Part shown: one piece after another, positions 1 through 20,149 of the stretch
How the letters are laid out: each line of letters starts with the position of its first letter
How positions within the stretch are numbered: the first letter of the stretch is position 1
DNA from: Methanosarcina barkeri MS
Lineage (GTDB): Archaea; Halobacteriota; Methanosarcinia; Methanosarcinales; Methanosarcinaceae
Assembly (NCBI RefSeq): GCF_000970025.1
Contig: NZ_CP009528.1
Location: forward strand, 893,168-917,167
Length of the DNA stretch: 24,000 nt
Reading direction: 5' to 3'
The notes under the pieces: generated by a model
The model's input: the letters and a program-made list of their open reading frames with translations, nothing else
The model's database searches: none
Told to the model about the DNA's origin: nothing
Position numbers and translations under genes: made by a program

Positions 1-793
1 AGAAAGCGGATGTGGAAAGTCTACTCTCTCAAGACTGCTCCTCTTGCTTATTCCTCCAACACGGGGAGAGATATTCTTTGAGGGTCAGGCTCTTACAAGA
101 CTGAAAGGGAAAGAACTCCGCTCTGTCCGGAAAAAACTTCAGATTGTGCCTCAACAGCCTGAAAGCTCCCTGGACCCCAGGTGGACGATAGCTTACTCAA
201 TCTGCGAACCTTTTCGCATACATCCTGATTCGTTACACGGAAGGCAGATGTATGAAGAGCTAAAAAGGCTTCTTAGGCTCGTTGGGCTCGAACCTGAGCA
301 GGCAGCCAGATATCCTCACCAGCTCAGCGGTGGAGAACTGCAACGTGCTGTTATTGCTCGTGCTATTGCACTTGAGCCTTCACTTCTCATATGTGACGAA
401 CCTACTTCAATGCTTGATGTCTCCACTCAGGCATCTATCATACACCTCCTGAAAGCACTCCAGCAAGACCTCGGATGTGCCCTTCTCTTCATTACTCACG
501 ACCAGGGGCTTGCGCACGCTATTGGAGACCGGACAGCTGTAATGTTTGCCGGGCAGATAGTAGAAGAGGGACAGGGTATTCTGGATAGGCCATACCACCC
601 ATTTACTTGCAGAATCACATCTGTCTCTGATTCCGGTTCCTTACCACCATCTGAACTTCAAGGGACAAAGATTCCAGGTTCATGCGTATATTATCAATTC
701 TGCCCGGAAAAGACAGAAAAATGCCTTCACAGCCCTGAAATGGTGGAATATGAAGATAGACGGGTTCGTTGCCATAACTTTTCGCCTACTTGA
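1..793 (+). CDS. ABC transporter ATP-binding protein, oligopeptide/dipeptide/nickel (OppF/DppF/NikE-like) type; 5' end cut by window edge
   Basis: The frame is open from nt 2 and reads ESGCGKSTLSRL (Walker A) upstream of the listed TTG at 44, so the true start lies outside the window. Motifs: LSGGELQR signature, LLICDEPTSMLD Walker B, ITHD H-loop. Opp-type Cys-rich C-terminal extension (CVYYQFCPEKTEKC...RC). Stop TGA at 791-793. Confidence 0.9.
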   Translation, partial: ESGCGKSTLSRLLLLLIPPTRGEIFFEGQALTRLKGKELRSVRKKLQIVPQQPESSLDPRWTIAYSICEPFRIHPDSLHGRQMYEELKRLLRLVGLEPEQAARYPHQLSGGELQRAVIARAIALEPSLLICDEPTSMLDVSTQASIIHLLKALQQDLGCALLFITHDQGLAHAIGDRTAVMFAGQIVEEGQGILDRPYHPFTCRITSVSDSGSLPPSELQGTKIPGSCVYYQFCPEKTEKCLHSPEMVEYEDRRVRCHNFSPT

Positions 794-872
794 TTAATCG
801 TACACTCTCACTTGATTAATCGTACACTCTCACTTGATTAATCGTACACTCTCACTTGATTAATCGTACACT
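789..872. repeat. Tandem repeat, 22-nt unit cttgattaatcgtacactctca, 3 perfect copies plus 18 nt
   Basis: Units at 789-810, 811-832 and 833-854 are identical; 855-872 is partial. The first unit contains the ATPase stop codon. Each unit carries the 8-bp palindrome GATTAATC. Confidence 0.95.
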
Positions 873-1074
873 TTTGATATATCCCTGATAGATTTTAGCG
901 GTACAACTACAATCGGAGTGCTTACTCCAATAAATTATCCCGTATTGTCTCAACGAATTCTCCATCCCAACAGGTTATCCAAAATTAAGATGATTACTCC
1001 AAAACTTCTTGTGTATGTAAGTTTTTGCAGAATTTGATGTTGATACATAACAGTCTCAGGTGTGATTAGTAAAT

Positions 1075-2625
1075 ATGAAACGAAAAGAGGGAATTCTCTT
1101 TATTCTACTGGCTCTAGTTGTCCTGGGAGCCGGCTGTACAGACAAAGAACAAAAAGGAGATAATCAAACATTATTTGTCTCAGGTCAATGGAGTCCCACC
1201 TCTATTGATCCTCACATATCGGGGACTGTTCCTCAAAGGCTCGGGTACGTAGAAACTCTCGTAGGAGTTGATTATGAAGGAAAGATTATCCCAAATCTTG
1301 CAAAATCATGGGAAGTCTCCAGTGATGGAAAAAAATGGACATTCAAATTGAGAGAGGGCGTTTTATTCCATGATGGGACACCTTTCACAGCCGAAATAAT
1401 GAAAAAATCACTCGAAAGGTCCTTTATCCAATCGGCATCAACATTCGGAAAAATTCCTGTAACGTCTATTGAGGTTCCTGATAACCTGACATTGGTAATC
1501 AATCTCAATTCAACTTTCCCTGCACTTCCTGCCTATCTTTCCAAAGGAGAAAGTGCTGCTCTTGCCCCCGGATCTTATGATGCAAGCGGAAATGTCACAA
1601 AGCCTATCGGTACCGGGCCTTTTATCTTTGAATCCTGGAAACCGGACGAAGAAATTGTTCTCGTCAAGAATCCCAATTACTGGGGACATGTTGCTTCAGT
1701 TGATAAAGTGGTATACCGGGTAATTCCTGAAGTACTTACAAGAAAGATGCTCCTTGACAGTAAGGACATTCAGATAGCAATGATTCTTTCGCCCGATGTT
1801 GCTGATAAATATACCGAAAAGGCTGATTATACAGTCCTTGAAGAGCCTATCGCTCGTGTAAGGATGATAACGTTCAATACGGAAAAGGAGCCCTTCAAAG
1901 ATAAAAAGGTACGTCAGGCTGTTAATTACGCTATAGATCGGGAAGCAATAGTGAATTCTGTCCTTTACGGATACGGAACCACAGCATCAGGGCTTTTTCC
2001 TCCTCAGTTTTACTGGGCAAACAAGGATATTGCCCCTTATACTTACGACGTGGAGAAAGCAAAAACACTCCTTGATGAAGCGGGATGGACCGACTCGGAT
2101 GGTGATGGGATCCGTGATAAAAATGGCAAGCCTATGAAGATTACATTAGTTACTTATTCTGAAAGAGCAGAACTGCCGTCGATCGCTGAGGTGATCCAGC
2201 AGCAGCTTAAGAAAGTAGGCATAGAGACAGAACTTAAGGTCCTCAATACCGATGCCGCAAATACCCAGAGGAATAAAGGAGATTTCGATATTTACCTTGT
2301 AGGAAGAGGACTATTTTTCGTACCTGATCCAGATGAGATAATGATGACGGACTATCACTCAAGCGGCACATCAATCGACGGTTGGGGGGCATATCGCTGG
2401 CACAACGACACTGTAGATCAGTTGATTGAGCAGGCCAGAACTACTTCCGATGAAGCTGCCAGAAAAAAACTCTATGATGAAGTTCAGGCAATTGTTGTCG
2501 AAGAAGCGCCGGTTGCGTATCTTAACTACTACGTTAATATCGACGTCACAACTTCGAACATAAAGGGATATCGTCTCCATCCTACAGAGTACTCTTTCGA
2601 CCTTCAGAATGTCTCAATTTCCTGA
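1075..2625 (+). CDS. ABC transporter substrate-binding protein, family 5 (OppA/DppA/NikA-like), probable lipoprotein
   Basis: 516 aa. Signal peptide ends in a lipobox-like LGAGC. Family-5 hallmarks PIGTGPFIFESW and NPNYWG. Followed by two cognate permease genes. Confidence 0.9.
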   Translation: MKRKEGILFILLALVVLGAGCTDKEQKGDNQTLFVSGQWSPTSIDPHISGTVPQRLGYVETLVGVDYEGKIIPNLAKSWEVSSDGKKWTFKLREGVLFHDGTPFTAEIMKKSLERSFIQSASTFGKIPVTSIEVPDNLTLVINLNSTFPALPAYLSKGESAALAPGSYDASGNVTKPIGTGPFIFESWKPDEEIVLVKNPNYWGHVASVDKVVYRVIPEVLTRKMLLDSKDIQIAMILSPDVADKYTEKADYTVLEEPIARVRMITFNTEKEPFKDKKVRQAVNYAIDREAIVNSVLYGYGTTASGLFPPQFYWANKDIAPYTYDVEKAKTLLDEAGWTDSDGDGIRDKNGKPMKITLVTYSERAELPSIAEVIQQQLKKVGIETELKVLNTDAANTQRNKGDFDIYLVGRGLFFVPDPDEIMMTDYHSSGTSIDGWGAYRWHNDTVDQLIEQARTTSDEAARKKLYDEVQAIVVEEAPVAYLNYYVNIDVTTSNIKGYRLHPTEYSFDLQNVSIS

Positions 2626-2626
2626 T

Positions 2627-2651
2627 GTGGGTATTCTACCCACCACTTTTT
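2627..2651 (+). terminator. Hairpin plus T5 just after the binding-protein stop; candidate intra-operon attenuator or terminator
   Basis: gtgggta (2627-2633) / ttc loop / tacccac (2637-2643), then T5 at 2647-2651. It lies 2 nt after the TGA at 2623-2625 and 24 nt before the next start. Confidence 0.45.
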
Positions 2652-2674
2652 CATTTAAAAGAGTTTGAGTAAGA

Positions 2675-3619
2675 ATGATACGTAGAATTATACTGAACCG
2701 TCTGTTTCAAATGATACAGGTCATGGTAGGGATATCTCTCATCACTTTTACAGTAATTTCTCTTTCACCAGGGGACCCAGCTGAAATTACGCTCAGGGCT
2801 ACTCTTGGTACCGAAAGTCCACCTAAAGAGGCGGTAGCCATACTTCATGAAGAGATGGGGCTTGACGATCCCTGGTATGTCAGTTATCTAAAATGGATTT
2901 CAAGGGTTGTGCATGGGGACCTGGGATATTCCTATCAGACAAAAAGGAGCACTATTGAAGAGATCAGAAATGCTCTGCCTACGACCTTCTATCTAGCCTC
3001 TCTCTCAATGTTATTCTCGGCTATTATAGCTATCCCTCTTGGAATTGCAGCAGCTCTGAGACAGAACGGGCCTGTAGATCACCTCTGCAGGCTTACTTCA
3101 ATAGTCTGCCTCTCGATCCCTGAGTATTTTATTGCTATAGTTTTTATGCTCATCGGAGGCATCTATCTAGACATCTTTCCGGTTGCAGGAACAGGAGGAA
3201 TAGAATACTTTATCCTTCCATCCCTGACTCTCTCGATTGGCCTTATTGCAATTACAATGCGTATCATGAGGACAAGCATGATTGAAACGCTTGAGCAGGA
3301 TTATATAAGGACAGCACGTGCAAAGGGGCTCAGCCGCAAAAAAATTATTCAAAAACATGCTCTAAAGAATGCACTTCTCCCTGTGATTATATATATGGGA
3401 ACTCAGTTCGGATGGATTTTCGGAGGGGCAGTTACCATTGAAACTATTTTTGCACTTCCAGGACTTGGATGGCTTCTTGTTAGCTCTGTTTCTTCGATGG
3501 ACATCATGGTGATGCAGGGATGTATGCTTACCTTCGCGGTGATCATAGTGCTTATTAATCTCTTTGTTGACCTAGCCCAGCTTTATCTTGACCCATCAGT
3601 CAGGGCTCAGGGGGAATAA
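2675..3619 (+). CDS. ABC transporter permease (OppB/DppB/NikB-like)
   Basis: 314 aa, multi-TM. Binding-protein-dependent transport motif region YIRTARAKGLSRKKIIQKHALKNALLPVI. Confidence 0.9.
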   Translation: MIRRIILNRLFQMIQVMVGISLITFTVISLSPGDPAEITLRATLGTESPPKEAVAILHEEMGLDDPWYVSYLKWISRVVHGDLGYSYQTKRSTIEEIRNALPTTFYLASLSMLFSAIIAIPLGIAAALRQNGPVDHLCRLTSIVCLSIPEYFIAIVFMLIGGIYLDIFPVAGTGGIEYFILPSLTLSIGLIAITMRIMRTSMIETLEQDYIRTARAKGLSRKKIIQKHALKNALLPVIIYMGTQFGWIFGGAVTIETIFALPGLGWLLVSSVSSMDIMVMQGCMLTFAVIIVLINLFVDLAQLYLDPSVRAQGE

Positions 3620-3633
3620 TAGGGAGAATATAT

Positions 3634-4512: not shown

Positions 4513-4542
4513 CTGGCAGGCAAAGGAAATAAAAAAGAAGAG

Positions 4543-4605
4543 TTCAGCCCCTAAAAATTCGTTTCTACCCTATGTATTTCAGCCCCTAAAAATTCGTTTC
4601 TACCC
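4543..4605. repeat. 28-nt direct repeat ttcagcccctaaaaattcgtttctaccc, 2 copies separated by 7 nt
   Basis: Copies at 4543-4570 and 4578-4605 are identical. The repeat begins 31 nt after the permease stop. Confidence 0.9.
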
Positions 4606-4941
4606 AAAATGATGATGTTTTTGACTTTCCTAAATAATGTAAAAATAAAACAGGAAAAAATGTTTGTAGTATCCAGTACTTGGAAAACCTTCCAGAGTAA
4701 TTAGCTACCTCTATTGCTGATACCTTTAGTCACGCCTGTAATTGTTGCAATAAAAATCTCATCGCATCTCATTTGAGCAGTTGCATTATTTAGTCTCGTG
4801 ACTATTATTATACGCTGGTAAAATACACTGGTAAATTTGTTTTTTTGGAGAAAAATGTAATCAGCAGAAGCAAAAAGTCTATTCCTGTAAAATACTGGAT
4901 AGGCATCAAAAAGTAAGAATTATTTACGTTATCCAAAACCA

Positions 4942-4956
4942 GATATATTTAAATAA
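4942..4956 (+). promoter_or_regulatory. Candidate TATA box for the synthetase gene
   Basis: gatatatttaaataa about 60 nt upstream of the ATG at 5016; SD-like ggagtg at about 5005. AT-rich context makes chance matches likely. Confidence 0.25.
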
Positions 4957-5015
4957 TCGCAAGCACTCTAAACCCCAAGAATTCTTACACTATTTCCCAA
5001 TCATGGAGTGTCTTT

Positions 5016-7625: not shown

Positions 7626-7643
7626 GCTTTTGCTTACCTTTTT
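7621..7643 (+). terminator. Hairpin overlapping the valS stop codon followed by T5
   Basis: ggtaagc (7621-7627) / tttt / gcttacc (7632-7638) then ttttt (7639-7643). A further T7 run lies at 7675-7681. Confidence 0.55.
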
Positions 7644-7724
7644 ATGAAAAAGTCCGATATTCGGACAACGCTTATTTTTTTCCAGCTTTTTACTAATAGC
7701 TGAGGTATGGCAAGCTGGCAGATC

Positions 7725-7886
7725 AATCTGAAAGGACAGAGTAATCTGAAAGGACAGAGTAATCTGAAAGGACAGAGTAATCTGAAAGGACAGAGTAATC
7801 TGAAAGGACAGAGTAATCTGAAAGGACAGAGTAATCTGAAAGGACAGAGTAATCTGAAAGGGCAAAGCAAGCTGAAGGCAGAATAT
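7725..7886. repeat. Tandem repeat, 18-nt unit aatctgaaaggacagagt, 7 perfect plus 2 degenerate copies
   Basis: Perfect units run 7725-7850. 7851-7868 (aatctgaaagggcaaagc) and 7869-7886 are degenerate. The array is intergenic, about 100 nt after valS. Confidence 0.95.
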
Positions 7887-8322
7887 CCTTCATGTCCGGT
7901 TCCATAAACTCAAACTCCTTCTTCAATTTAAGTTTCGGCCTTAATTCTGCATCTCGGCTGTTCAATTGATTTTCTCAGATTCTCTTTCTCATATTACTTA
8001 AATATCATTTTCAAAGATGCAAGTAAACTCTTAGTGTATAATATTATGAAGAAAATACATAAACTGTTCAGCTTAAATTGAGAATTTCTATAAAGCCGGA
8101 GTCTCAAATAAGGACATTTAGAATTAGTCATAAACTTTAATACTTTTTTATAACTATAAATGCTCAGGATTGCTTCAAAATGGTGAAGTATCTCTGTGAT
8201 TTTACGTTGCAGTGAAGTTAGTTAATCAGTTGTAAGTATCTGTATTTTTCCTTTCTCTATTAAGAAAAATAATATTATTTTATGAAAGTGAAAAAACAAA
8301 GACTCACTTTTTCAATGTGAAA

Positions 8323-8332: not shown

Positions 8333-8380
8333 ATCTAGGTAATCTGTTTCAGAAATGTATTATTCAGACCTGGAGTTTTT

Positions 8381-8749: not shown

Positions 8750-8996
8750 GCCTTAGAAATTTCTAAAATTAAATAAGATATTCAAGCAATAACAGCCTTA
8801 AGCAATTAAATGTGTTTTATTGTAGCTTTTTCTAAGTCAGGTTTTCTTTGACTTAATTCTAGCCTGTCCCCAACCGTTTCTTCTACGAAATATAAACCTG
8901 AAACCGGCCTGTAGAATCTGTAATCTACACCTCATTCAATTTTAGCCGTTTTAAATCCCTTTTGTTCTTTAAACCTTACTCACTCCAGTTTCATTT

Positions 8997-9104
8997 CGGG
9001 ATGAAGGTGCTCTTTTCGCTGCCCAAATTCTGTCACCCTATTTCCGTCACCCTATTTCCGTCACCCTAGTCCCGTCTCGGGAGGACGGTGCCCTTTTCGC
9101 TCGG
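8997..9104. repeat. GC-rich composite repeat: a 27-nt imperfect direct repeat flanking a 14-nt triplet
   Basis: cgggatgaaggtgctcttttcgctgcc (8997-9023) vs cgggaggacggtgcccttttcgctcgg (9078-9104), 21/27 identical. Between them, cgtcaccctatttc occurs about 3.3 times (9031-9076). Small hairpin ccgtc/gacgg at 9072-9088. Confidence 0.8.
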
Positions 9105-9644
9105 TTCGTTTGCTCAAGAGGGCTGAGTTAGGGGGTAAAGGGCGGTAATCTTTACACAAGTTTGTTGATTTAAAAATTGCAGATTTCTGCCTTTAGTTGC
9201 TTGGAAGTCATAGAAAATCAAGGATTTCTTAGGAGAGGACTAATCTGCAATGTTTCGTTTTTCCGGTTTAATGGAGCTGTAACCGGGTCTGAGAATCTTT
9301 CTGTAAATGTTATATTCTATAAAATACCATATGTGTTTTTTCGATTAGTTTAAACCGACAGAGCTTTTTATATGTAATTTATTTTTTAAATTGTTCTGGG
9401 CTAATAGAAAATATCACATTGAGGAATGAATTATATGTTAATATGCACATATTAGAATAAAAATATAAAAACACAAATCAAACAAGAGAGCGTTTGTGCA
9501 CATAATTAGGGTAAAAATGGATTTTTATATAAATATACAACTTTAAGTATACGACTTTAAAATGGTTATCTAATATTGAAGATTATAGCCCTTCAGTTCA
9601 TTAATTTTTAGAAATAAAATAAAACAATTTCAGCAGGTGATTTC

Positions 9645-10901
9645 ATGTTTTTACAGGATTATGAATTAAGTGAAGAAGAGAAAGTTCTCTTACAAAAGGT
9701 TCTGGATGGAGATGTGGCTCTTCGTAAGATTGAGGAGTTTGCAGACCCTGTGACTTCAGTAAAAATCAGACGGCTTGCAATACAGGAATTTACAAAACTT
9801 GAGTTTGAGAATATCCAGAATTTTTCCCTTGATGTTGAAGCAGCATCGAAAAAGAACATTGAAAACATGATAGGTGCAGTTCAGATTCCTCTCGGAGTTG
9901 CCGGACTTCTGAAGGTAAATGGCGAATATGCGAATTCCGAATACTACATTCCGCTTGCTACAACTGAAGGGGCTCTTGTTGCCGGTGTAAATCGTGGCTG
10001 CTCGGTTATCACAAAATCAGGAGGAGCAAATGTCAGGGTTTTTGAAGACAAAATGACGAGAGCACCTGTTTTTAAGCTTGAGAGTGTTAGCAGAGCTAAA
10101 GAATTTTATGAGTGGGTAAAATGTCCTGAGATTTTTGAGAAGATGAAAACCGTTGCTGAGAAAACGACACGTTTTGGAAAACTGCTTTCTGTAAAACCCT
10201 TCGTAACTGGCACAGATGTACACCTCAGGTTCTCGTACGATACAAAAGACGCCATGGGTATGAACATGGTGACTATAGCTACCGATGCGGTGATGCATCT
10301 TATAGAAGACGAATTCGGTGCGCATCCCATTACTCTTTCAGGAAATATGTGTACGGACAAAAAACCAGCTTCTATAAGCGCGATTCTCGGAAGAGGAAAA
10401 ACCGTTGTAGCCGAGGTTACGATTCCAAAAGAAATTGTCAAGGAAACCCTCAAATGTACGCCTGAATCCATGTTTGAAGTAAACTACAGCAAAAACCTGC
10501 TGGGTTCAGCAAGAGCAGGAGCACTTGGATTCAATGCTCATGCTGCAAATATTATTGCTGCGATTTATCTGGCCTGCGGACAGGATGCTGCTCATGTTGT
10601 TGAAGGAAGCACCGCAATTACGAGTATGGAGCTTACGAAATATGAAGAAATTCACTGCTCTGTTACTCTACCTGCTCTGCCTGTGGGAACCGTTGGTGGA
10701 GGCACTGGTCTTGGGACCCAGAGGGATTGCCTGAACATTCTTGATGTTGCAGGCGCAGGTGACGTTCCTGGAACAAACTCTAAGAAATTTGCGGAAATCG
10801 TAGCTTCTGCCGTGCTTGCAGGAGAAGTTAACCTTATAGGAGCTCAGGCTGCAGGACATCTTGCCCGTGCCCATGCCCAGCTAGGCCGTGGGAAGTTCTA
10901 A
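9645..10901 (+). CDS. hmgA: 3-hydroxy-3-methylglutaryl-CoA reductase (class I, archaeal mevalonate pathway)
   Basis: 418 aa. Motifs EGALVAGVNRGC, DAMGMNMV, GTVGGGTGL and the C-terminal AAGHLARAH region. SD caggtga upstream. Confidence 0.92.
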   Translation: MFLQDYELSEEEKVLLQKVLDGDVALRKIEEFADPVTSVKIRRLAIQEFTKLEFENIQNFSLDVEAASKKNIENMIGAVQIPLGVAGLLKVNGEYANSEYYIPLATTEGALVAGVNRGCSVITKSGGANVRVFEDKMTRAPVFKLESVSRAKEFYEWVKCPEIFEKMKTVAEKTTRFGKLLSVKPFVTGTDVHLRFSYDTKDAMGMNMVTIATDAVMHLIEDEFGAHPITLSGNMCTDKKPASISAILGRGKTVVAEVTIPKEIVKETLKCTPESMFEVNYSKNLLGSARAGALGFNAHAANIIAAIYLACGQDAAHVVEGSTAITSMELTKYEEIHCSVTLPALPVGTVGGGTGLGTQRDCLNILDVAGAGDVPGTNSKKFAEIVASAVLAGEVNLIGAQAAGHLARAHAQLGRGKF

Positions 10902-11208
10902 TGCAACCGTTGACTCGCAACCGTTGAGCCGGTTGATCACGCCGGATAAGTTTTGGGGATAAGATTCTCAAACTCAAATGTTGCTGAGGTTTTCGGTCAA
11001 GCCTTTTTTCAAAAGGTTTTCGGTCAAGCAGTTTTTTCAAAAGACTTGCGAGGAAGCTTTCCAGGGGAAAGGTTGTGGAAGACACTGAGATTACGAGAAT
11101 CAGATCTTCCGGGTAAAACATGATCCAATAAGAGTTCTTACCATTATTGGCAAACTCCAGCTTCTGATCGATAAGATAATCTTTTATGAGAGAGAGTATA
11201 TTGACCAT
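10834..11208 (-). CDS. Hypothetical ORF, possibly a truncated gene remnant
   Basis: 124-aa ORF. Only the first 55 aa or so (MVNILSLIKDYLIDQKLEFANNGKNSYWIMFYPEDLILVISV...) look protein-like. The rest is read from the duplicated terminator module, the 14-mer repeat and 68 nt antisense to the hmgA 3' end. Confidence 0.25.
   Translation of the reverse strand: MVNILSLIKDYLIDQKLEFANNGKNSYWIMFYPEDLILVISVSSTTFPLESFLASLLKKLLDRKPFEKRLDRKPQQHLSLRILSPKLIRRDQPAQRLRVNGCIRTSHGLAGHGHGQDVLQPELL
10902..10938. repeat. 14-nt tandem repeat (t/c)gcaaccgttga(c/g)(t/c), about 2.6 copies, starting 1 nt after the hmgA stop
   Basis: tgcaaccgttgact (10902-10915), cgcaaccgttgagc (10916-10929), cggttgatc (10930-10938). 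Confidence 0.8.
10987..11041 (+). terminator. Duplicated 27/28-nt module, each copy ending in a T6 run; candidate tandem terminators for hmgA
   Basis: aggttttcggtcaagccttttttcaaa (10987-11013) and aggttttcggtcaagcagttttttcaaa (11014-11041). Oligo-T is the archaeal termination signal. Confidence 0.5.
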
Positions 11209-11650
11209 TGACTCTGCTTCCTATTTTTTGTGGTGAAGAAAAAGGATACAGAGTCAATCATAATTTACAGAACTTTTGGGTATATTGCCACCGATTTACT
11301 AAAATTTTGATTTTTCTCAAAACAGTTCTAAATTTGGGTGTAACTTCAATTTTGAGAATAGTTCCCAAATCTGTAGACAGCTTTTCTATAATTCTTTAAT
11401 TAATATATCTTCATTTGCGCTCTTTATCAATTTTTAAGAAAAGTTAATAAATCAGAAGATGTTAGTATCTATTGAATATTTATGGGGATGTGTATGGGGG
11501 TAATTAATAGGGAACCATGCGGATCAGCTCTTGAATATCTTGTTTCCCATCAAAAACTCTGTCAAACTTGAGATATAGATATGCTGAGAATATGACCCTT
11601 TAATTTCTCTATATACTTTCATTCAAAAATAATCCTTGGAGTGAATCAGA

Positions 11651-12277
11651 ATGAAAGGAATTTTTAGCATTTTTAGAAAAGACGATAAAGCCTTTACAGG
11701 GCTCGAATCAGCAATTGTGCTGACCGCTTTTGTAGTTGTGGCAGCAGTGTTTTCTTATGTAGTGCTTGGGGCAGGGTTTACAACTTCTGATACTGCCAAG
11801 AAGACTATCGAGGAGGGTGTGAAACAGACTACTTCTTCAGTTGAACTTGCAGGTGACGTGATAGCAAAAGGTACTCCGATAGTCACAACAGATGTAAACG
11901 GAACAACAACGACAACCGGCGGAACAGTAGATAAAATTCTTGTCACCCTTCAGCTTACAGCAGGGCAGTCTCCCGTGGATATAGGACCTGGAATGCTGGT
12001 GGTATCTTATGCTGACAGTGCTATCTACAGCCCAGAAGTGACATGGTCTCAGTCATTTGTAGGGGATGACGATGGCGATGCGATTCTAGAACAGCACGAG
12101 AAAGTACAACTGGAAATCACTGTACCCAATACTGAGCCAGACGTCGCATTGCTTGCAACTTCTTGTTCAGCGGAGAACACTGAGTTCAGACTTGAGATAA
12201 AACCAAAGGTTGGCGCAATTGTCCCAATAACAAGAGTGATTCCGGCACAGATCGATCAAGTTATGGTTCTGAAGTAA
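11651..12277 (+). CDS. arlB: Archaellin (archaeal flagellin FlaB/ArlB)
   Basis: 208 aa. Type IV pilin-like class III signal: short basic leader (FRKDDK) then FTGLESAIVLTAFVVVAAVFSYVVLGAGF, similar to the crenarchaeal-type archaellin N-terminus ...G/LDTAIIL. Thr/Gly-rich variable domain. SD ggagtg. First gene of the arl cluster. Confidence 0.85.
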   Translation: MKGIFSIFRKDDKAFTGLESAIVLTAFVVVAAVFSYVVLGAGFTTSDTAKKTIEEGVKQTTSSVELAGDVIAKGTPIVTTDVNGTTTTTGGTVDKILVTLQLTAGQSPVDIGPGMLVVSYADSAIYSPEVTWSQSFVGDDDGDAILEQHEKVQLEITVPNTEPDVALLATSCSAENTEFRLEIKPKVGAIVPITRVIPAQIDQVMVLK

Positions 12278-12312
12278 TCCCTATGGATTTTAGGGATACT
12301 TTCCCTTCTTTT
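12277..12312 (+). terminator. Hairpin plus T-rich tract right after the arlB stop; candidate attenuator
   Basis: atcccta (12277-12283) / tggattt / tagggat (12291-12297), then actttcccttctttt. Confidence 0.4.
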
Positions 12313-12353
12313 ATGGAGGATAAAAAGTTTCATTTTTTGTTCAGGTGGTTAAT

Positions 12354-13043
12354 ATGGAACTGGAGAAAAAAGTTGCAGATATGGAAACTGAACTTAAAGT
12401 CGTAAAAGGGGAGATCAAGGAATTACTTGTAGATATAAGGGACCTTGTAAACAGAAATGAAAATCCCTTCTTCAATGACCAGAAAAATGGAGTTTCAAGG
12501 CTTGAAACAAAAGGAAAAGGGGCAGAAGTGGAGAATCAACTACCTGCTGATGAAGAAAAAAATGATAAAAATAAGGAAAGCGTCCAGGAGCCGGTCAGAA
12601 CCATTTCTCAAGATGGGGTTCCCGAAGAAAATATGCCACGGCAGAAAACTCCTACAAAGGAAATACAGGCGATTGAACCTGAAATTTCAGCCCGAAAAAT
12701 TGATACGTTTACCCTTGTTGAACTCATGCGCTGGGTCGATTATGCTATAAGGACAGTTGGACACGGCAACCTAGAAGTCCTGCTTGACCTGTATTCACTT
12801 ACCGGACCGCTTTCTGAAGAGACCAAGTATATTATCAAAAATATTGCAAACCTTTCCATTGAAGACCCTGCATGTGAAGATAAGGTTAGCATGAAAGATA
12901 ATATTACAGTGCTTTCGCAACTGAGTGCAATTCTCGACCCTAAGAAATTCAAAAATGGAATCCAGCCTATTTACGAAAATTCAGGCTGGAGAGAAGACAA
13001 AAAAGGAAGACAGGATTTTTCTTTAATTAAATGTACGAACTAA
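12354..13043 (+). CDS. arlCDE: Archaellum accessory protein, ArlC/D/E (FlaC/D/E)-like
   Basis: N-terminal coiled coil (ELEKKVADMETELKVVKGEIKELLVDIRD), charged low-complexity linker, and a C-terminal FlaD/E-like block (FTLVELMRWVDYAIRTVGHGNLEVLLDLYSLTG). It occupies the arlC/D/E slot between arlB and arlF. The ATG at 12354 has SD aggtgg 5 nt upstream and is preferred over the listed GTG at 12345. Confidence 0.6.
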   Translation: MELEKKVADMETELKVVKGEIKELLVDIRDLVNRNENPFFNDQKNGVSRLETKGKGAEVENQLPADEEKNDKNKESVQEPVRTISQDGVPEENMPRQKTPTKEIQAIEPEISARKIDTFTLVELMRWVDYAIRTVGHGNLEVLLDLYSLTGPLSEETKYIIKNIANLSIEDPACEDKVSMKDNITVLSQLSAILDPKKFKNGIQPIYENSGWREDKKGRQDFSLIKCTN

Positions 13044-13080
13044 GAAATTGACTAGATGTACGAACCGCTAAATCGACTGA
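13031..13080. repeat. Imperfect 25-nt tandem duplication spanning the arlCDE stop codon
   Basis: atgtacgaactaagaaattgactag (13031-13055) vs atgtacgaaccgctaaatcgactga (13056-13080), 18/25 identical. Confidence 0.45.
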
Positions 13081-13337
13081 AAAGCAGATCAAATGTTCAA
13101 ATTAATACCAGTTAATCATTATTAGTGTCAGTAAACTTAGGTAAATACTGTATAATTAACCGTTATTGTCGAATAGAATCAATGCTACTGGCATAATCGA
13201 TATTTCTGACATAAACAGGTTGAGATATCAATATTATCCAACGGCTATATGCTCATTCAAACTGATTTAAGTTTATTCGGACTTAGGTAGTTTACTCAAA
13301 CTGATATGGGACTCGGAAAGTAAGGCGGGGTCGAAAA

Positions 13338-13832
13338 GTGAGTGGGGAAGCGATAAGCTCTGCGATTCTAACAATAGCATCCATTATCTGTGCATTTTCA
13401 TTTGTTTCAGTTGTATACCCGTCTGTAATTTCCGCAGGAGACCCTATAGTCAGCCGTACTAATGCAATGGGAGACCAGATCCTGACCGATTTTGAAATAT
13501 TACACGAGACAACTGCCGCTGAAGGCTTAGAGGTTCACATATGGGTTAAAAACGTGGGACCTAAAGGGATATCTTCCGGTTTAATCCAGCGATCTGACCT
13601 TTTTTTTGGGGAGGTCGGAAAATTTGAAAGGATACCATATGACGAGAATGGAAGTCTGGCTCCTTGCTGGAACTACTCAATAGAGCAAAGCAATGACGAT
13701 AACTGGGACAAAGGGGAAACACTGCAGATCAGATTAAAGCCTGCTGATGTGCTTGTCAGCGGAGCGAAGTATTTCATTAAATTTAGTGCATACAATGGGG
13801 TTTCGGAAGAGGCCTATTTTACGGTGTCATGA
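13338..13832 (+). CDS. arlF: Archaellum protein ArlF (FlaF)
   Basis: 164 aa, GTG start. N-terminal TM helix (AISSAILTIASIICAFSFVSVVY) plus a beta-rich soluble domain. Position and 4-nt ATGA overlap with the next gene are typical of flaF-flaG. Confidence 0.7.
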   Translation: MSGEAISSAILTIASIICAFSFVSVVYPSVISAGDPIVSRTNAMGDQILTDFEILHETTAAEGLEVHIWVKNVGPKGISSGLIQRSDLFFGEVGKFERIPYDENGSLAPCWNYSIEQSNDDNWDKGETLQIRLKPADVLVSGAKYFIKFSAYNGVSEEAYFTVS

Positions 13833-14341
13833 TGGGATTCGGAACGGTTATTGCATCAATGCTTTCGGTTGCAATCCTCCTCCTGGCATTTTATGTCTGC
13901 TCAAGCGGGGGGTTTTACATGGCAGATGTTCTTGCAAATTCAGTAATGGAGATGCAGGAAAATGAGAATGAGATAATGAAAACCGAAATCGAAATTACAA
14001 ACATTTCTGCAAATGAGGCCGGTATTTTCGTGTCCCTGAATAATACTGGCTCCACAAAGGTAGGAGACTATGATTATATGGACGTGATCGTTAAGTACTC
14101 CAACACATCCGGCATTGCAAAAACCATATGGGTTCCCTTCCAGGGAGATTCAGACGCATTAGAAGACAAATGGACTGTGGGAAATATAAGTCCAGATCTG
14201 GTAAATCCCGGAATTCTTGATCCGGGTGAGGAGATAGAATTGCAGATTTTGCTCGAAGATTCCCTGGAAAACAAGAGTGTAAACTGGCTGTTGGTAACTG
14301 CCCCAAATGGAGTCAAAGCTTCAGGATATTTTAACGCATGA
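13829..14341 (+). CDS. arlG: Archaellum protein ArlG (FlaG)
   Basis: 170 aa. N-terminal TM helix (GTVIASMLSVAILLLAFYV) and a beta-rich domain (IEITNISANEAGIFVSLNNTGSTKV). Translationally coupled to arlF. Confidence 0.7.
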   Translation: MMGFGTVIASMLSVAILLLAFYVCSSGGFYMADVLANSVMEMQENENEIMKTEIEITNISANEAGIFVSLNNTGSTKVGDYDYMDVIVKYSNTSGIAKTIWVPFQGDSDALEDKWTVGNISPDLVNPGILDPGEEIELQILLEDSLENKSVNWLLVTAPNGVKASGYFNA

Positions 14342-14445
14342 ATTAGAAAATCGGTTTGATAGTTCAGAATTAGATAACTGGTTGATAGTCCAGATTTAGA
14401 TTACTGGTTTGATAGCCCAGATGTAGATTACTGATTGATAATCTA
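14340..14445. repeat. Tandem repeat, 26/27-nt unit, 4 diverged copies, starting on the arlG stop codon
   Basis: gaattagaaaatcggtttgatagttca (14340-14366), gaattagataactggttgatagtcca (14367-14392), gatttagattactggtttgatagccca (14393-14419), gatgtagattactgattgataatcta (14420-14445). Confidence 0.9.
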
Positions 14446-14535
14446 TAATTATTCCGGCTAAGTCAATGAGTTGAATTAGATAAACTAAGGAGATACAAAA
14501 CAGTTGATCTTTGAAAAAAGGGAGAGAGGAAGAGT

Positions 14536-15321
14536 ATGGGAGTAAATTCGGAAGAGGCTTTATTTCTTGAAAATGAAACATTTTGTGAAGAGGTATCAGA
14601 TAACTCGGAAACTGAGAGGAAACCCTTAGAATTCATATCCTCAGGAAATCTGGAGATTGATAAAAAACTGGAAGGAGGTGTACCCATAGGTTCCCTTTGC
14701 CTTCTCGAAGGGGCAAAAGACAGTGGAAAATCAGTTTTCATGCAGCAGATTATATGTGGAGCTCTCAACCAGGATAAAAAAGTTTTAGCTTTAACGACGG
14801 AAAAAACCTCTCGTAAATTGTTGAATAATATGGAAAGCCTGAAGCAGGACATCTCAGATTATTTTATAATAGGCAGATTAAGGATCTTTGAAATAAATGC
14901 AAGTTATGTCGAAGAAAGTCCCGAGCTAAGTAATAATCTGCTAGGGAGGATGCTCGAATGTGTAAATGACTGTGAAGAAGAACTTATCCTGATCGATTCT
15001 TTAACGATTTTAGCGGTTAGCGCCTCTGAAAATACCTTATTGAACTTTTTTAGAGAATGTTTAAAACTTTGTGATAAAGAAAAGACTATTTTAATAAGTG
15101 TTCATGGGTATGCTTTTTCCCAGGAAGTGCTTTACAGGCTAAGATCCGTTTGCGATTCATGCCTGGAACTGAGAATTGAACAGGTCGGAGATAAGCTGAT
15201 AAAGACTATGGAAATTCAGAAGTTGAGAGGTGCCAAAAAAACTACTGGAAATATGTTAAGTTTTGATGTGAACAGTGAGTATGGACTTAAAATAATTCCA
15301 GTTTCGAAAGTCAAAGCCTGA
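14536..15321 (+). CDS. arlH: Archaellum RecA/KaiC-like ATP-binding protein ArlH (FlaH)
   Basis: 261 aa. Walker A LEGAKDSGKSVF, Walker B-like ELILIDSLT. Sits in the slot directly before arlI. Confidence 0.8.
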   Translation: MGVNSEEALFLENETFCEEVSDNSETERKPLEFISSGNLEIDKKLEGGVPIGSLCLLEGAKDSGKSVFMQQIICGALNQDKKVLALTTEKTSRKLLNNMESLKQDISDYFIIGRLRIFEINASYVEESPELSNNLLGRMLECVNDCEEELILIDSLTILAVSASENTLLNFFRECLKLCDKEKTILISVHGYAFSQEVLYRLRSVCDSCLELRIEQVGDKLIKTMEIQKLRGAKKTTGNMLSFDVNSEYGLKIIPVSKVKA

Positions 15322-15381
15322 GAGAGGAAAAACATCCGGAAAAAGTGCTCTTAAGAAATAAGGCCCGAATGAGGATTTTAA

Positions 15382-17196
15382 ATGGACGCTCTACCTTTTA
15401 ACCCGCTGCCTGCACCGGTAAATGGAAAGCGCTCCAGAGAAGATGTACGTTCAAGACTTCCTTCTGAATTGCAGGAATTTGTTGGCAGGGAAGAGAATAG
15501 TCACATCCTTGATTATATATGCAGGCTTCCTCTGGAGCAAGTCGAAATCCCGGAGTTCCATTTAAAGATCTCAAGAGCTATGAAAAGTATCAGACATCCA
15601 AACCTCATTTACCCTATTGGAAAAGGACTTGCTGTTCACATTTATCCCGATAAAGAAGACATAAGAAATTACTATATCCCGATAGAACCCTGCCTTTTTC
15701 AGGATATAGACAGCACACTTGAGGCTGTAGAAAAGCTGCTTATCGACGTTATACATGATGGGGATGTCGATACTAAGGACCTGGAAGAAAAGAAAAGACT
15801 TCTGGAAAGGGCCCTTGAAAAGGTTTGTATTATAGAAGAACACGTAAATGAAAGTGTAGAACAAAAAAGTAAAGATCTTGAGAGGAATAAAACAGTCAAG
15901 AGAAAGAAAAATGGTAGATTGAGGCTTGGATTGATTGGAAATTTAAAAGAAGCCGGTAAAGTCTTCAAAATGAATAAATGGGAAAATATCCGGGTAACTC
16001 CTGAAGAATTTCAAGCTATCAAATATCTTATGATAAGGGACAAGATCGGAATGGGAATGCTCGAACCTCTGTTGCTGGACTCAAATATAGAAGATATAAG
16101 TTGCAGTGGGCTTGGGAGGGTTTTCGTCGAGCATAAGGTATTTTCGTCCCTTAAAACAGCAATTGAGTTTCAGGAGACTGAGGAACTTAACTCTTTTATT
16201 ATACAGATGTCCGAGAAGGTCGGAAAGCCAATCACATATCGAGATCCGATAGTCGATACAGCTCTTCCGGATGGGTCAAGGATTAACATTGTGTTCGGAG
16301 AAGATGTATCCAGAAGGGGGAGCAATTTTACAATAAGGAAATTTATGGGAACTCCGATTTCTATTCTTGAGCTTATTGATTTTGGGACAATTGACTACAT
16401 AATAGCTGCATATATGTGGATGATGCTGAGGGCAGGGATGAACTGCTTTATTTCGGGGGAAACGGCTTCCGGAAAGACTACTATGATGAATGCAATAACT
16501 ACTTTTCTTCCCCCGGAGTCAAAAATAGTTTCTATTGAAGATACTCCGGAACTGCAGGTTCCACATAAAAACTGGACCAGAGAGGTTACAAGGACTACAA
16601 GAGAGGATAGTGGGTCTGACGTCTCAATGTTTGACCTGTTAAAGGCTGCTCTTCGCCAGCGTCCTAATGAGATTATAATCGGAGAAATCCGTGGAGTAGA
16701 GGGCAGCATTGCTTTTCAGGCTATGCAGACCGGGCATCCTGTTATGTCTACTTTCCATGCCGCATCCGTCGAAAAACTTATTCAGAGGCTGACAGGAGAC
16801 CCGATTAATGTTCCTAAAAACTATGTGGATAACCTGAATGTGGTTATCATCCAGAGCGCGGTAAATATCCCTGGAAAAGGTATGGGAAGAAGAGTCCTGA
16901 GCATAAACGAAATCGTAGGCTATGATTCCTTTAATCAGGCTTTCAATTTTATGGATATATTTAAGTGGGACCCAGCAACAGATACTTTCAAATTCACGGG
17001 AAGAAATAATTCATATCTGTTAGAGCAAAAGATTGCTCCACGTCTGGGAATTCCGGAAAACCAGGTCCGAAAAATATATTCCGAACTTGAAAGGAAAGCA
17101 AAAATTCTCCAAAAGATCCATCAGGCGAAAATTACCAACTTTTACGATCTGTTCAATACGCTGATCCAGATTGAGGAGGCCGGGTTAATATCATGA
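15382..17196 (+). CDS. arlI: Archaellum motor ATPase ArlI (FlaI), type II/IV secretion ATPase family
   Basis: 604 aa. Walker A SGETASGKTT, Asp/Walker B box RPNEIIIGEIRG, His box STFHA. Confidence 0.92.
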   Translation: MDALPFNPLPAPVNGKRSREDVRSRLPSELQEFVGREENSHILDYICRLPLEQVEIPEFHLKISRAMKSIRHPNLIYPIGKGLAVHIYPDKEDIRNYYIPIEPCLFQDIDSTLEAVEKLLIDVIHDGDVDTKDLEEKKRLLERALEKVCIIEEHVNESVEQKSKDLERNKTVKRKKNGRLRLGLIGNLKEAGKVFKMNKWENIRVTPEEFQAIKYLMIRDKIGMGMLEPLLLDSNIEDISCSGLGRVFVEHKVFSSLKTAIEFQETEELNSFIIQMSEKVGKPITYRDPIVDTALPDGSRINIVFGEDVSRRGSNFTIRKFMGTPISILELIDFGTIDYIIAAYMWMMLRAGMNCFISGETASGKTTMMNAITTFLPPESKIVSIEDTPELQVPHKNWTREVTRTTREDSGSDVSMFDLLKAALRQRPNEIIIGEIRGVEGSIAFQAMQTGHPVMSTFHAASVEKLIQRLTGDPINVPKNYVDNLNVVIIQSAVNIPGKGMGRRVLSINEIVGYDSFNQAFNFMDIFKWDPATDTFKFTGRNNSYLLEQKIAPRLGIPENQVRKIYSELERKAKILQKIHQAKITNFYDLFNTLIQIEEAGLIS

Positions 17197-18758
17197 TAAA
17201 TGTCATGAAACCTGAGGAGAAGCTTGCTTACCTGAAAGCGGAAGCTGAAATGCATGGGTTTGAGGGCTACTTTAATCTTGCGCGGCAACTGAAGGGCACG
17301 AAGGTTGTTGAAAGAGTCAATGATGATATGCTCTTTCTTCTCACTTATATGGCAGCAATTTCAACTGCGGATATTGAAAGAGATAGAATCTTTGATTATG
17401 CGGGCTCTCAGAAAGAGTATGAAGCTTCAAAATATTTCAGGCAGATCCATACCCTTGCCTCAAAGTGGGGCTATGCATATGCAAAAGCCTGCAAATATAT
17501 CTCCCAGCGATTGCAGGATGAGTATATTTCTAAGCTTTTTGGACGAATGTCAAATATTCTTTCTTCTGGAGAACCGGAAAAAAACTTTCTGAAGCAAGAA
17601 AAAATAACAAGGGAAGAAATATTTTCTAATGAATATGAAAGAAGTATCGAATCCCTGAAAAAATGGACCGATGGATATACTGCTCTGATGGTGTCCGTAA
17701 CTCTTGTTGTTACTATAATTCTTGTTTCAGTTATGATCTATAATATAACAAATATAGGAACGATCGCTTTTCTTGTTGTATTACTAACTGTTTTTATCTG
17801 TGGGATTGCGCTTTTTATCATATATAAGGCCGCTCCTGCTGAAAAGAAACTTCATACCCTGAGCAGGCGATCAAAGGAACAGGAAATTATCAGGTTTTTG
17901 AGCCGGATTTTGCTTCCACTGGGAGCAATTTCGGTTGCTGCTCTCATTTTAATTGGTACGAAGCTCCAGTATACTTTGCTTGCAATAACTTTCTTTACGC
18001 TTCCAATAGGCTTCTTTGCAATGATAGATGACCGAAATATCAATGAAAGGGACAGTAGTTTTCCTGCATTTGTCAAGACTCTGGGCACGCTTGCCGGAAC
18101 GACAGGAATTACTATTCGAAGTGCAATGGAGGACCTTGATAAAGAAACTATAGGTGGTCTCAGGCCTGAGGTTGAGGAATTACATGCAGGACTTTCCTTG
18201 GGACTCAAGTCGAAGCTTTGCTGGGAGAAATTCATAGGAGAAACAGGTTCCGAACTGATCAACCGGTGCTCAAGGATCTTTACGGATGCAGTTGAGCTTG
18301 GAGGAGATCCTGCCGAAATAGGAGAGATAGTCTCATCCTCAAGTCTTGCTATCGTACTTCTCAGGATGAAAAGGCAGCTTGTCAGTTCAGGTTTTCGCGG
18401 CCTTGCCATAACTCTCCATGCTGTTATGATCGGGCTTCTAATCTTTATAATAGAAATAATTTCCAAATTTAGCGGGCTCGTTTCTGGAATGAATGAGTCA
18501 TATTCTTCGATTCAGGGAGGTGCTTCCGGAATGGGGATGAGCATGTTTAATGCTACTGAAAGTATACCTTTGCTTTACACATTTACTCTTTCCGTGGTGC
18601 TTATTCTAACAATTTCAAATACTCTTGTAGTAAAAATTGTCGAGGGTGGAGGAAACTGTAAGCTCTTTTTTTACGGAGGTTTGATGTCAGGAATTTCCGG
18701 GCTCTGCATGATTCTTGTACCGCCGGTTGTATCAGGGGTATTTACGTTTCAGATGTGA
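17193..18758 (+). CDS. arlJ: Archaellum membrane platform protein ArlJ (FlaJ)
   Basis: 521 aa, polytopic, with two TM clusters separated by a cytoplasmic domain (GspF/TadB-like architecture). ATGA overlap with arlI. Confidence 0.85.
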   Translation: MINVMKPEEKLAYLKAEAEMHGFEGYFNLARQLKGTKVVERVNDDMLFLLTYMAAISTADIERDRIFDYAGSQKEYEASKYFRQIHTLASKWGYAYAKACKYISQRLQDEYISKLFGRMSNILSSGEPEKNFLKQEKITREEIFSNEYERSIESLKKWTDGYTALMVSVTLVVTIILVSVMIYNITNIGTIAFLVVLLTVFICGIALFIIYKAAPAEKKLHTLSRRSKEQEIIRFLSRILLPLGAISVAALILIGTKLQYTLLAITFFTLPIGFFAMIDDRNINERDSSFPAFVKTLGTLAGTTGITIRSAMEDLDKETIGGLRPEVEELHAGLSLGLKSKLCWEKFIGETGSELINRCSRIFTDAVELGGDPAEIGEIVSSSSLAIVLLRMKRQLVSSGFRGLAITLHAVMIGLLIFIIEIISKFSGLVSGMNESYSSIQGGASGMGMSMFNATESIPLLYTFTLSVVLILTISNTLVVKIVEGGGNCKLFFYGGLMSGISGLCMILVPPVVSGVFTFQM

Positions 18759-18760
18759 TA

Positions 18761-18895
18761 AATTGAAAAATGTATATTAACTAAATGTATATTATAATTA
18801 AATATAAATTTTAATTAAATGTGAATTTTAATTGAATGCAAATTTTAATTGAATGCAAATTTTAACTAAATGTAAATTTTAACTAAATGTAAATT
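18761..18895. repeat. Tandem repeat, 17-nt AT-rich unit (aattgaatgcaaatttt / aactaaatgtaaatttt), about 8 copies
   Basis: Units start at 18761, 18779, 18796, 18813, 18830, 18847, 18864 and 18881. Neighbouring units are pairwise identical (18830 = 18847; 18864 nearly equals 18881). The array starts 3 nt after the arlJ stop. Confidence 0.9.
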
Positions 18896-18944
18896 AACTA
18901 GAAGAGCTATAAAGAAAAATTCAGGGTTGGTGGGAGGTAACAGA

Positions 18945-19919
18945 ATGGATGCATTAAATAACTTGAAAATTAAAGGGCTAAAAAATCTAAAGATCAATGG
19001 ATTCAAATTTCTAAAAGTTAACGAATTAAAGCATTTGATACCTAAGCCTGGGGGCCGAGATGATATGGAACTGGGGGATTTGATAAAAAGTAAAAAGGAG
19101 GTTGAAATCAAAATCCGAACATTGTTTAGGGAAAAGGAAGATCTCGAATCCCGGATCGAAAAGAAAGAACTCGAATCCCGGGTTGAAAAGAAAGAACTCG
19201 AATCCCAAATTGAAAAGAAAGAACTTGAGTCCCGGACTGGTCGGCTTCAAGAAACCAAAGACGAAAAAAGGGACGAAATATCTGAGTTTCCCTGGAGAAA
19301 GGAAATCTTTCCCCCGCTTCGCAGAAATATGCATCACGAAGTATCCAGATCTCTTGAAGTTGAAACTGATACTTTGCAAAAAGAAGATACCGGAATCTCA
19401 GAGAGGATAGATAGCCAAACTGGTAAAAAAGTTGAAGAATCTGATAAATTTTTTAAATCAAAAGAAACCGGCGAAATCGAAGAGGCCAATATAACAGAGA
19501 TAGGGGTTAAAGAAGAAGCAAATTCTGCCGGTGAAAAAAATGATGTGAAAGGTGATGAAAAAGCCGATTTCGATGATATGAGAAAAAAAGCTGGAGAAAT
19601 TGCTTTTCTGGAAAATACAGACAAACCAGAAACTGTCGAGGTGGCTTTAGAAGATAATGAAAAAGGAGAAAATACAAGGCTTGTCTTAGAAAATAATAAA
19701 AAAGAAGAAGATAAAACTCCTGAAATGAGAAAAACTGAAAGTGAAAACCCTGCCCCTAGCATTTTTGGAAATAGCCTGATTCAGGAGTTGCTGGAAAGTG
19801 AGGAACTGTGCTCTGAGGAAGAGCAAAATTTCATGAAGTATATTGGGGAATCAAGTGTTTCTGAACTCATCGTAGATTTAAAAGAAGTAAAGGGCCTCCT
19901 TACCGAAGCAGGGTCCTGA
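18945..19919 (+). CDS. Glu/Lys-rich repeat protein of unknown function (probably coiled coil or disordered)
   Basis: The ATG at 18945 has SD ggaggt 6 nt upstream and is preferred over the listed TTG at 18927. N-terminal LK-periodic segment (LNNLKIKGLKNLKINGFKFLKVNELKHL). Four 9-aa repeats EK(K/E)(E/D)LES(R/Q)x. Long acidic tail. Same strand as arlJ and directly downstream of it. Confidence 0.6.
   Translation: MDALNNLKIKGLKNLKINGFKFLKVNELKHLIPKPGGRDDMELGDLIKSKKEVEIKIRTLFREKEDLESRIEKKELESRVEKKELESQIEKKELESRTGRLQETKDEKRDEISEFPWRKEIFPPLRRNMHHEVSRSLEVETDTLQKEDTGISERIDSQTGKKVEESDKFFKSKETGEIEEANITEIGVKEEANSAGEKNDVKGDEKADFDDMRKKAGEIAFLENTDKPETVEVALEDNEKGENTRLVLENNKKEEDKTPEMRKTESENPAPSIFGNSLIQELLESEELCSEEEQNFMKYIGESSVSELIVDLKEVKGLLTEAGS
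19131..19238 (+). repeat. In-frame 27-nt tandem repeat, 4 copies, inside the Glu/Lys-rich ORF
   Basis: gaaaag(g/a)aaga(t/a)ct(c/t)ga(a/g)tccc... Units at 19131, 19158, 19185 and 19212 encode EKEDLESRI / EKKELESRV / EKKELESQI / EKKELESRT. Confidence 0.9.
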
Positions 19920-20084
19920 AAGTCTGATTATTATATAAAAAACGAGCAGGAAACTCTTCGAATTGGGGGCATAAACAAATAATAGTACCTGAAAGCACTT
20001 GAAAGCATTTTTATGCCAGGAAAAACAAAAATAGTGACGGAAATCCCGCCACACGAAAATCCTGCCACAGAGCTCTTAAAGAAT

Positions 20085-20149
20085 AGTTCTTAAGATACAG
20101 CTTTAGAAGGAAGTTCTTAAGATACAGCTTTAGAAGGAAGTTCTTAAGA
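20085..20149. repeat. Tandem repeat, 27-nt unit agttcttaagatacagctttagaagga, 2 perfect copies plus 11 nt
   Basis: 20085-20111 and 20112-20138 are identical; 20139-20149 is partial. The array lies 18 nt downstream of the stop of the minus-strand small ORF. Confidence 0.95.

Follow-up and report, generated by a model that had tools for sequence, protein, structure and literature searches.

Why should the spacers of one region of the Methanosarcina barkeri MS chromosome carry, at or just after stop codons, a series of short tandem repeat arrays that have no sequence in common? The question is raised by the 24 000-nucleotide (nt) stretch of contig NZ_CP009528.1 from position 893,168 to position 917,167 (the window, in whose coordinates positions are given), for which a first-pass annotation had listed nine such arrays and suggested a systematic process or function tied to gene 3′ ends. 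Our analysis makes it probable that the arrays are ordinary satellite, or variable number tandem repeat (VNTR), DNA of M. barkeri-type genomes, with short units of unique sequence, placed by selection and without a common function. The preference for gene 3′ ends is genuine and general but moderate, a 2 : 1 tendency, and the window is a rich patch. Its genes, nearly all on the plus strand, comprise an Opp-type ATP-binding cassette (ABC) transporter, valS, a DsrE-family gene, hmgA and the archaellum cluster from arlB to arlJ; the rest of the window holds two S1-peptidase-like genes, named from their homologues, and the end of an aconitase-family gene. The G+C content is 32–49% per 1-kb segment and about 40% overall, and the spacers are long, averaging about 390 nt.

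At a score of at least 50, Tandem Repeats Finder (TRF) called 10 arrays in the 5.8 kb of window spacer, whereas 300 dinucleotide shuffles gave 0.15 on average. Of the nine arrays listed earlier (A1–A9, Table 1), TRF recovered seven at or near the same coordinates; A2 is not strictly tandem and was not called, and A4 is marginal, being missed in the window even at a score of 30. All nine do lie 0–100 nt downstream of a stop codon, and in three of them, those starting at 788 (A1), 13031 (A6) and 14340 (A7), the first unit lies on the stop codon itself; the gene that ends within A6 is 12354–13043, previously designated arlCDE. Partial terminal units are present. A repeat search of the window found the units to be mutually unrelated, in agreement with the earlier description, and no unit recurred, either at a second place in the window or among the loci fetched from other species, which rules out dispersed repeats of the repetitive extragenic palindrome (REP) or miniature inverted-repeat transposable element (MITE) type. 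REPs and bacterial interspersed mosaic elements (BIMEs) also lie after stops or between convergent genes and can belong to 3′ untranslated regions (UTRs), but REPs are dispersed families with one palindromic sequence, whereas the units here differ from array to array and have no palindrome in common. Clustered regularly interspaced short palindromic repeats (CRISPR) are likewise ruled out, as had been recognized, because the copies are contiguous and no cas domains occur among the window proteins.

The extent that had been claimed for the association did not stand. Nearly every transcription-unit 3′ end was said to carry an array, but 7 of the 16 gene 3′ ends in the window (44%) have a TRF array of this score within 100 nt; TRF found none at the 3′ ends of arlB, arlH, the aconitase-family gene or either S1-peptidase-like gene, and zero arrays in the 9 kb that follow the window on its right in this genome. 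Of the nine arrays, three sit between arl cistrons and, as two of these three spacers lack any T4 run, the inter-arl arrays probably mark the ends of genes rather than of transcription units. In addition, apart from a GC-rich mid-spacer repeat treated separately, the only repeat away from stop codons had been thought to be an in-frame coding repeat (19131–19236; 27 nt × 3.9, of EKKELESR type, in a protein of 324–330 amino acids without a Pfam match), but TRF also gives the four additional arrays of Table 1.

Arrays of this description are already known. Subirana & Messeguer (2019, BMC Evol Biol 19:181, PMC6749651) found Methanosarcina to be by far the richest in satellites among prokaryotes, with 72–83 satellites per Mb in M. 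barkeri and 89 in M. vacuolata, mostly with short units. The 18-mer of A3 is listed in the M. barkeri MS supplement of that survey (NZ_CP009528.1:900890-901016), as is the 12-mer of an array flanking the window on the left (885331-885427), and the spacing of the two catalogued starts equals the spacing of both arrays here. The left-flank array (L087, 1092–1208) is a perfect 12-nt × 9.8 repeat of ATTTAATTCTTT, situated in a convergent spacer 2 nt past the stop of a radical-SAM gene. Most window arrays fall below the survey cut-off of at least four repeats. They resemble the published satellites in coming from the same organism group, in having unique and unrelated units of about 11–30 nt, and in being scattered, mostly non-coding and species-specific; the difference is that the published survey made no analysis of position relative to gene ends. 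Our literature search found no described 3′-end association of Methanosarcina repeats, and the moderate 3′ bias is an addition to the published catalogue, not a contradiction of it. The arrays are instances of an already published class, and the phenomenon as such is known: head-to-tail copies above chance, unique units, variation in copy number between strains and an entry in the catalogue were all found. They also behave as do the bacterial VNTR loci used in multiple-locus VNTR analysis (MLVA), with polymorphic copy number in near-identical strains, slippage-type dynamics and greater variation in the purer arrays, but their density far exceeds that of most bacteria and no link to phase variation is apparent.

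Comparison of strains and relatives supported the local duplication that had been proposed as the origin of the arrays. Exact copies of the window proteins are encoded on the M. barkeri chromosomes CP008746 and CP009530, which we take to be those of strains CM1 and 227, and in two draft assemblies; the strains compared are at least 99.8% identical, and a more distant relative, L005, has 93% nucleotide identity. The expected differences in copy number between strains were found for A1, A3 and A9. A1 has one further copy in CM1; the interval containing A3 measures 169 nt in the window but is shorter by one copy in CM1 and 227 (151 nt) and by three copies, to 5.4 by TRF, in another strain (115 nt); and A9 has 2.4 or 1.4 copies among strains, with one fewer in L083. 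The three could serve as markers for typing M. barkeri strains. The product of the gene with the coding 27-nt repeat has 315 amino acids in CM1, compared with 324 elsewhere, and the nine-residue difference fits the loss of one unit.

In L005, A1, A3 and A5 are each present as a single copy, A6 was not found, and A9 is represented by only about two diverged copies that TRF did not call. A4, A7 and A8 are common to the window and L005 with different copy numbers, A4 occurring there in a longer version that TRF does call (14 nt × 2.1) and A8 in 4.6 copies; A7 is absent from L012 and L013. Both copies of A2 are present in L005 but have diverged from one another, whereas they are identical in the window, which points to homogenization. 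The orthologous spacers of L005, its relatives and other Methanosarcina species hold other, unrelated arrays at varied positions, and L006, a M. barkeri-like metagenome-assembled genome (MAG), has its own 19-nt duplication spanning the same ATPase stop codon as A1. Alignments with relatives show that the arrays arose in place from local sequence. Taken together, the single-copy precursors, the strain differences and the unrelated arrays of other species indicate that every array is born in place and turns over rapidly.

The placement of arrays relative to genes was determined in about 40 Methanosarcina loci, using TRF arrays with a score of at least 50 and a period of at least 7, and genes from a codon-usage caller of open reading frames (ORFs) that agreed with the public annotation of the window for nearly all genes. 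Array density was 0.06 per kb in coding sequence, compared with about 1 per kb in spacers, and the period was divisible by 3 in 28 of 29 coding arrays, compared with 53 of 166 spacer arrays. Within co-directional spacers, 90 of 128 arrays lay nearer the stop (p = 5e-6), a preference that remained after arrays with similar units had been removed (56 of 85, p = 0.0045). Convergent spacers held 1.28 arrays per kb and divergent spacers 0.58, or 0.76 and 0.44 after the same removal. An array occurred within 100 nt of 19% of gene 3′ ends but of only 9% of 5′ ends, and arrays were depleted within 100 nt upstream of starts. The other Methanosarcinaceae genera showed the same asymmetry, with 48 of 62 arrays nearer the stop. 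The enrichment on the stop side that the first-pass annotation had expected is therefore present, but it is lost when the conserved 100–150 nt before each start are left out of account and stop-spanning duplications are admitted, and the 19% versus 9% asymmetry is the baseline against which any later claim of a 3′-end function is to be set.

That explanation comes from the conservation of the spacers themselves. In identity profiles against other species, the conserved part of a spacer is the 100–250 nt upstream of the start, and the stretch that runs from the stop is poorly conserved; the stop-proximal part was less conserved than the start-proximal part in all eight spacers (for example 0.37 versus 0.85, 0.13 versus 0.52 and 0.34 versus 0.72). 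A null model with uniform placement in each spacer, in which the first unit may span the stop and the last 150 nt are forbidden, predicted 44.6 arrays nearer the stop, and 44 were observed. Spacers of at least 800 nt were unbiased, with 9 of 25 arrays nearer the stop. Moreover, a second, independent region of 21 kb in this species (L095), lying 1.9 Mb away, reached through a paralogous peptidase and richer in arrays, has four arrays in divergent spacers, where there is no gene 3′ end; over 63 kb of the species, convergent, co-directional and divergent spacers held 2.47, 1.32 and 1.27 arrays per kb, respectively, and 12 of 14 arrays in co-directional spacers were nearer the stop. The conservation profiles, the fit of the null model and the arrays in divergent spacers therefore argue for a filter imposed by selection rather than a process acting at 3′ ends.

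On this explanation, a local spacer stretch of 11–30 nt would be duplicated in place through replication slippage or unequal recombination, and we infer that the duplicated stretch would then expand, contract and homogenize. With constraint confined to the promoter and 5′ UTR side of the spacer, 100–250 nt before the start, tolerant DNA would begin at the stop codon, and a duplication whose first unit lies across the stop would leave the protein unchanged. As the window genes are almost all co-directional, every spacer would open with a stop. The placement on the stop-codon side would thus arise because long spacers are constrained only at their far end, because stop-spanning duplications are neutral and because the genes share one direction.

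Several observations weigh against a purely selective account. It does not account for the satellite load of M. barkeri, which is ten times that of M. horonobensis. First units touching a stop numbered 14, compared with 8.7 expected (p = 0.04, about 1.5-fold), and stop-touching arrays numbered 10, compared with 6.2 expected (p = 0.07), after promoter exclusion; the excess is 2-fold when the null model bars first units that span the stop and 1.5-fold once these are allowed. Convergent spacers are about twice as dense in arrays as divergent ones. The sample, too, is not an annotated whole genome but about 40 mostly syntenic loci and 63 kb from the species, in which genes were called with a home-made program. 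Selection could explain both the convergent/divergent difference and the residual stop excess, but a mutational contribution to them may exist.

Such a contribution is the core of the first alternative to placement by selection, a mutational hot spot in which repeats form preferentially at sites where transcription or translation stops, or at encounters of replication with terminating RNA polymerase, perhaps with a relation to the Borg repeats of Methanoperedens (Schoelmerich et al. 2023, PLoS Biol, PMC9879509). The leftover excess at stops and the independent duplications of two lineages over one ATPase stop codon are what it would predict, as are the stop-side preference in the 63 kb of the species and the similar bias of the other genera. 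There are also points of likeness to Borg repeats: these too have units of about 20 nt that are often perfect and evolve fast, originate independently in related genomes, have intergenic unit lengths mostly not divisible by 3, begin in some arrays with a first unit within the gene end (here A1, A6 and A7) and have partial flanking units. However, Borg units are enriched in A on the coding strand, whereas our arrays, oriented by the upstream gene, have A and T fractions of 0.343 and 0.350, matching the spacer background (0.341 and 0.338), so that a Borg-like A bias or strand asymmetry is ruled out; unit identity is mixed here, with three of the nine arrays perfect and matches of 100% in A1 and A9, 97% in A3 and 78–93% in A5–A8; and ours are chromosomal, whereas the hosts of Borgs are almost without such repeats. 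Furthermore, the excess is small and loses significance after promoter-zone exclusion, arrays occur in divergent spacers as well, and the bias vanishes in very long spacers. Younger, purer arrays showed no clear trend towards a weaker 3′ bias than older ones, in a small sample. Nor are hairpins enriched in the units: several units of the window contain palindromes (GATTAATC, TTAATTAA and CTTAAG), but the longest stem averaged 3.36 in 105 units, compared with 3.30 in random spacer segments (p = 0.33), and hairpin-seeded slippage was rejected. The termination-linked hot spot put forward earlier is not needed to explain the placement, and we regard it as unlikely. We give the same low credence to the narrower proposal that part of the 3′ bias is mutational, with repeat formation on Methanosarcinales chromosomes starting preferentially at gene ends, as on Borgs, through, for example, slippage or template switching at transcription termination or at an encounter with the replication fork. 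If it were true, stop-spanning duplications would be a mutational signature particular to the lineage and not what selection has left behind, and a mutational origin of the residual excess would link chromosomal satellites to the unexplained repeats of Borgs.

A functional explanation would make the arrays 3′-UTR or terminator modules, either iterated oligo-T terminators or sites for RNA-binding proteins or small RNAs, with alternative 3′ UTR isoforms. The median 3′ UTR of M. mazei is 85 nt (PMC7237163), so many stop-proximal arrays are probably transcribed, and the T6-bearing segment duplicated in A5 after hmgA is likely to be a duplicated oligo-T terminator, which may give that gene a second terminator; T-tract duplication of this kind could plausibly give rise to the consecutive terminators that have been reported in Methanosarcina. 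T-runs are the archaeal termination signal (PMC7237163), but their positions relative to the arrays are inconsistent: they precede the array at valS, where A3 sits past three of them, and follow it at the genes for the permease and the ATPase. Within units a T-run occurs only in A5 and, as T4, in A8, and two arl spacers have none of T4 or longer. Among stop-proximal units genus-wide, a sense-strand run of five T residues was found in just 5 of 35, compared with a run of five A residues in 3 of 35. The erratic positions and the lack of T enrichment on the sense strand led us to reject iterated oligo-T terminators. Folding was better than in shuffled controls for three of the nine arrays (A1, A3 and A5), in a different way for each, and the other six have no unusual structure; as an Rfam search also gave no matches at the gathering threshold, a common RNA structure was rejected as well. 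No strand bias is seen, copy number drifts among strains, and conservation of most arrays does not extend even to L005, at 93% identity. There is no sign of a role common to the arrays, and the function at 3′ ends proposed in the first-pass annotation was not borne out; a general modular role is very improbable, although one array or another may incidentally affect a 3′ UTR or termination. The least probable explanation, in our view, is that the arrays tune the downstream promoter, as variable spacers or repeated binding sites whose copy number alters expression of the next gene in the manner of contingency loci. A7 and A8 do occupy short spacers (A7 takes up most of the 194-nt arlG–arlH spacer) and end 84 and 49 nt before the next start, the A8 units are TATA-like, the array at 9530–9561 lies in a conserved promoter-proximal zone and is kept in L005, and copy number is polymorphic. 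Most arrays, however, are hundreds of nucleotides from the next start (A1 202, A3 504 and A5 607 nt), arrays are depleted just before starts, convergent spacers have arrays but no downstream promoter, and the polymorphic arrays A1, A3 and A9 are those far from any start. We therefore return to tolerated duplication, placed by selection, as the best explanation, and it carries a caution: stop-adjacent repeats in satellite-rich archaeal genomes can mimic designed 3′-end modules, when duplications that were merely tolerated would explain them.

Table 1. Tandem arrays in the spacers of the window. For A5 and A8 the match purity is the range for A5–A8.
Array	Position	Repeat	Match purity	Location	Basis
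A1	788–872	22 nt × 3.9	100%	First unit contains the last sense codon and the TGA stop (791–793) of the ABC ATPase gene	TRF
A2	4543–4605	Two identical 28-mers, 7 nt apart (period 35)		31 nt past permease stop	Repeat search
A3	7725–7886 (TRF 7725–7876)	18 nt × 8.4	97%	100 nt past valS stop, beyond three T5–T7 runs	TRF
A4	10902–10938	Weak 14 nt × 2 (11/14 positions) plus a poor partial copy		1 nt past hmgA stop	Sequence
A5	10987–11043	27/28 nt × 2.1, T6 run in every unit	78–93%	Downstream of hmgA	TRF
A6	13031–13078	Imperfect 25 nt × 1.9, score 61	78%	Across TAA stop (13041–13043)	TRF
A7	14340–14451	26/27 nt × 4.2	79%	Begins on arlG stop	TRF
A8	18777–18895	AT-rich 17 nt × 7	78–93%	Between arlJ stop and the following gene, ending 49 nt before its start	TRF
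A9	20085–20149	Perfect 27 nt × 2.4	100%	Convergent spacer, 18 nt past stop of minus-strand 59-amino-acid gene	TRF
Additional	4810–4835	Weak, 13 nt × 2.0		Mid-spacer, 298 nt past stop	TRF
Additional	9028–9076	14 nt × 3.5		Mid-spacer, within GC-rich element	TRF
Additional	9530–9561	14 nt × 2.3		Start-proximal, 84 nt 5′ of hmgA start; kept in L005	TRF
Additional	20037–20069	16 nt × 2.1		Convergent spacer, 118 nt past orf330 stop	TRF

The arrays also generate spurious ORFs in public annotations. A repeat-built ORF on the minus strand (7723–7965), lying over the 18-mer array A3, is annotated as a hypothetical protein of 54, 62 or 80 amino acids depending on the strain, its length shifting with the copy number. 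A minus-strand ORF of 124 amino acids (10834–11208) runs through A4 and A5 and is likewise annotated as a hypothetical protein in public assemblies. We rejected A4 and A5 as coding sequence of this ORF, which has a codon-usage score under the threshold of the caller, and treated it as spurious, because relatives match it in several frames and chiefly over its overlap with hmgA. Both ORFs are probably spurious.

The GC-rich element that contains the array at 9028–9076 is composite and occupies 8990–9150 of the dsrE–hmgA spacer. It is 83% conserved in L005, and L001 has parts of it, as does L078 in the form of an 88-nt × 2 repeat. No Rfam family matches it, and it could be a structured RNA or the remnant of a mobile element.

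The archaellum cluster together with the 330-amino-acid repeat protein (about 10912–20002 of the window) is absent from L006, in which a region homologous to window 20002–20483 begins no more than about 300 nt after hmgA. In L007 (M. spelaei) homology ends at window position 10912, and nothing later in the window matches. The end points of this archaellum indel adjoin A4 and the array at 20037–20069.

Repeat density also varies among the other genera. The loci of gut-associated Methanosarcinales (Methanimicrococcus, Methanolapillus and relatives; L064, L067, L069, L072, L073, L076 and L080) have 0.5–1.3 arrays per kb of locus, a density equal to or above that of Methanosarcina, and those of Methanolobus, Methanococcoides and Methanomethylovorans mostly have about 0.1 arrays per kb or less, with a maximum of 0.24.

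A dispersed repeat of 94 nt is present in the window at 20485–20578 and 23217–23310. Its copies are 90% identical, have terminal inverted repeats (GTACTGTCAAGTTGA...TCAACTTAACAGTAC) and lie in the divergent and convergent spacers that flank the two peptidase-like genes; among the fetched loci it occurs only in M. barkeri strains, and it looks like a MITE. The two neighbouring genes, 21133–22188 and 22352–23050, are paralogous and have an N-terminal region in common (75–80% nucleotide identity over 75–129 nt), and homologues of the former carry the names S1 family peptidase or streptogrisin-like. In the same genomes, 1.9 Mb away, lies a further pair of paralogues of the peptidase-like genes, with 69% identity.

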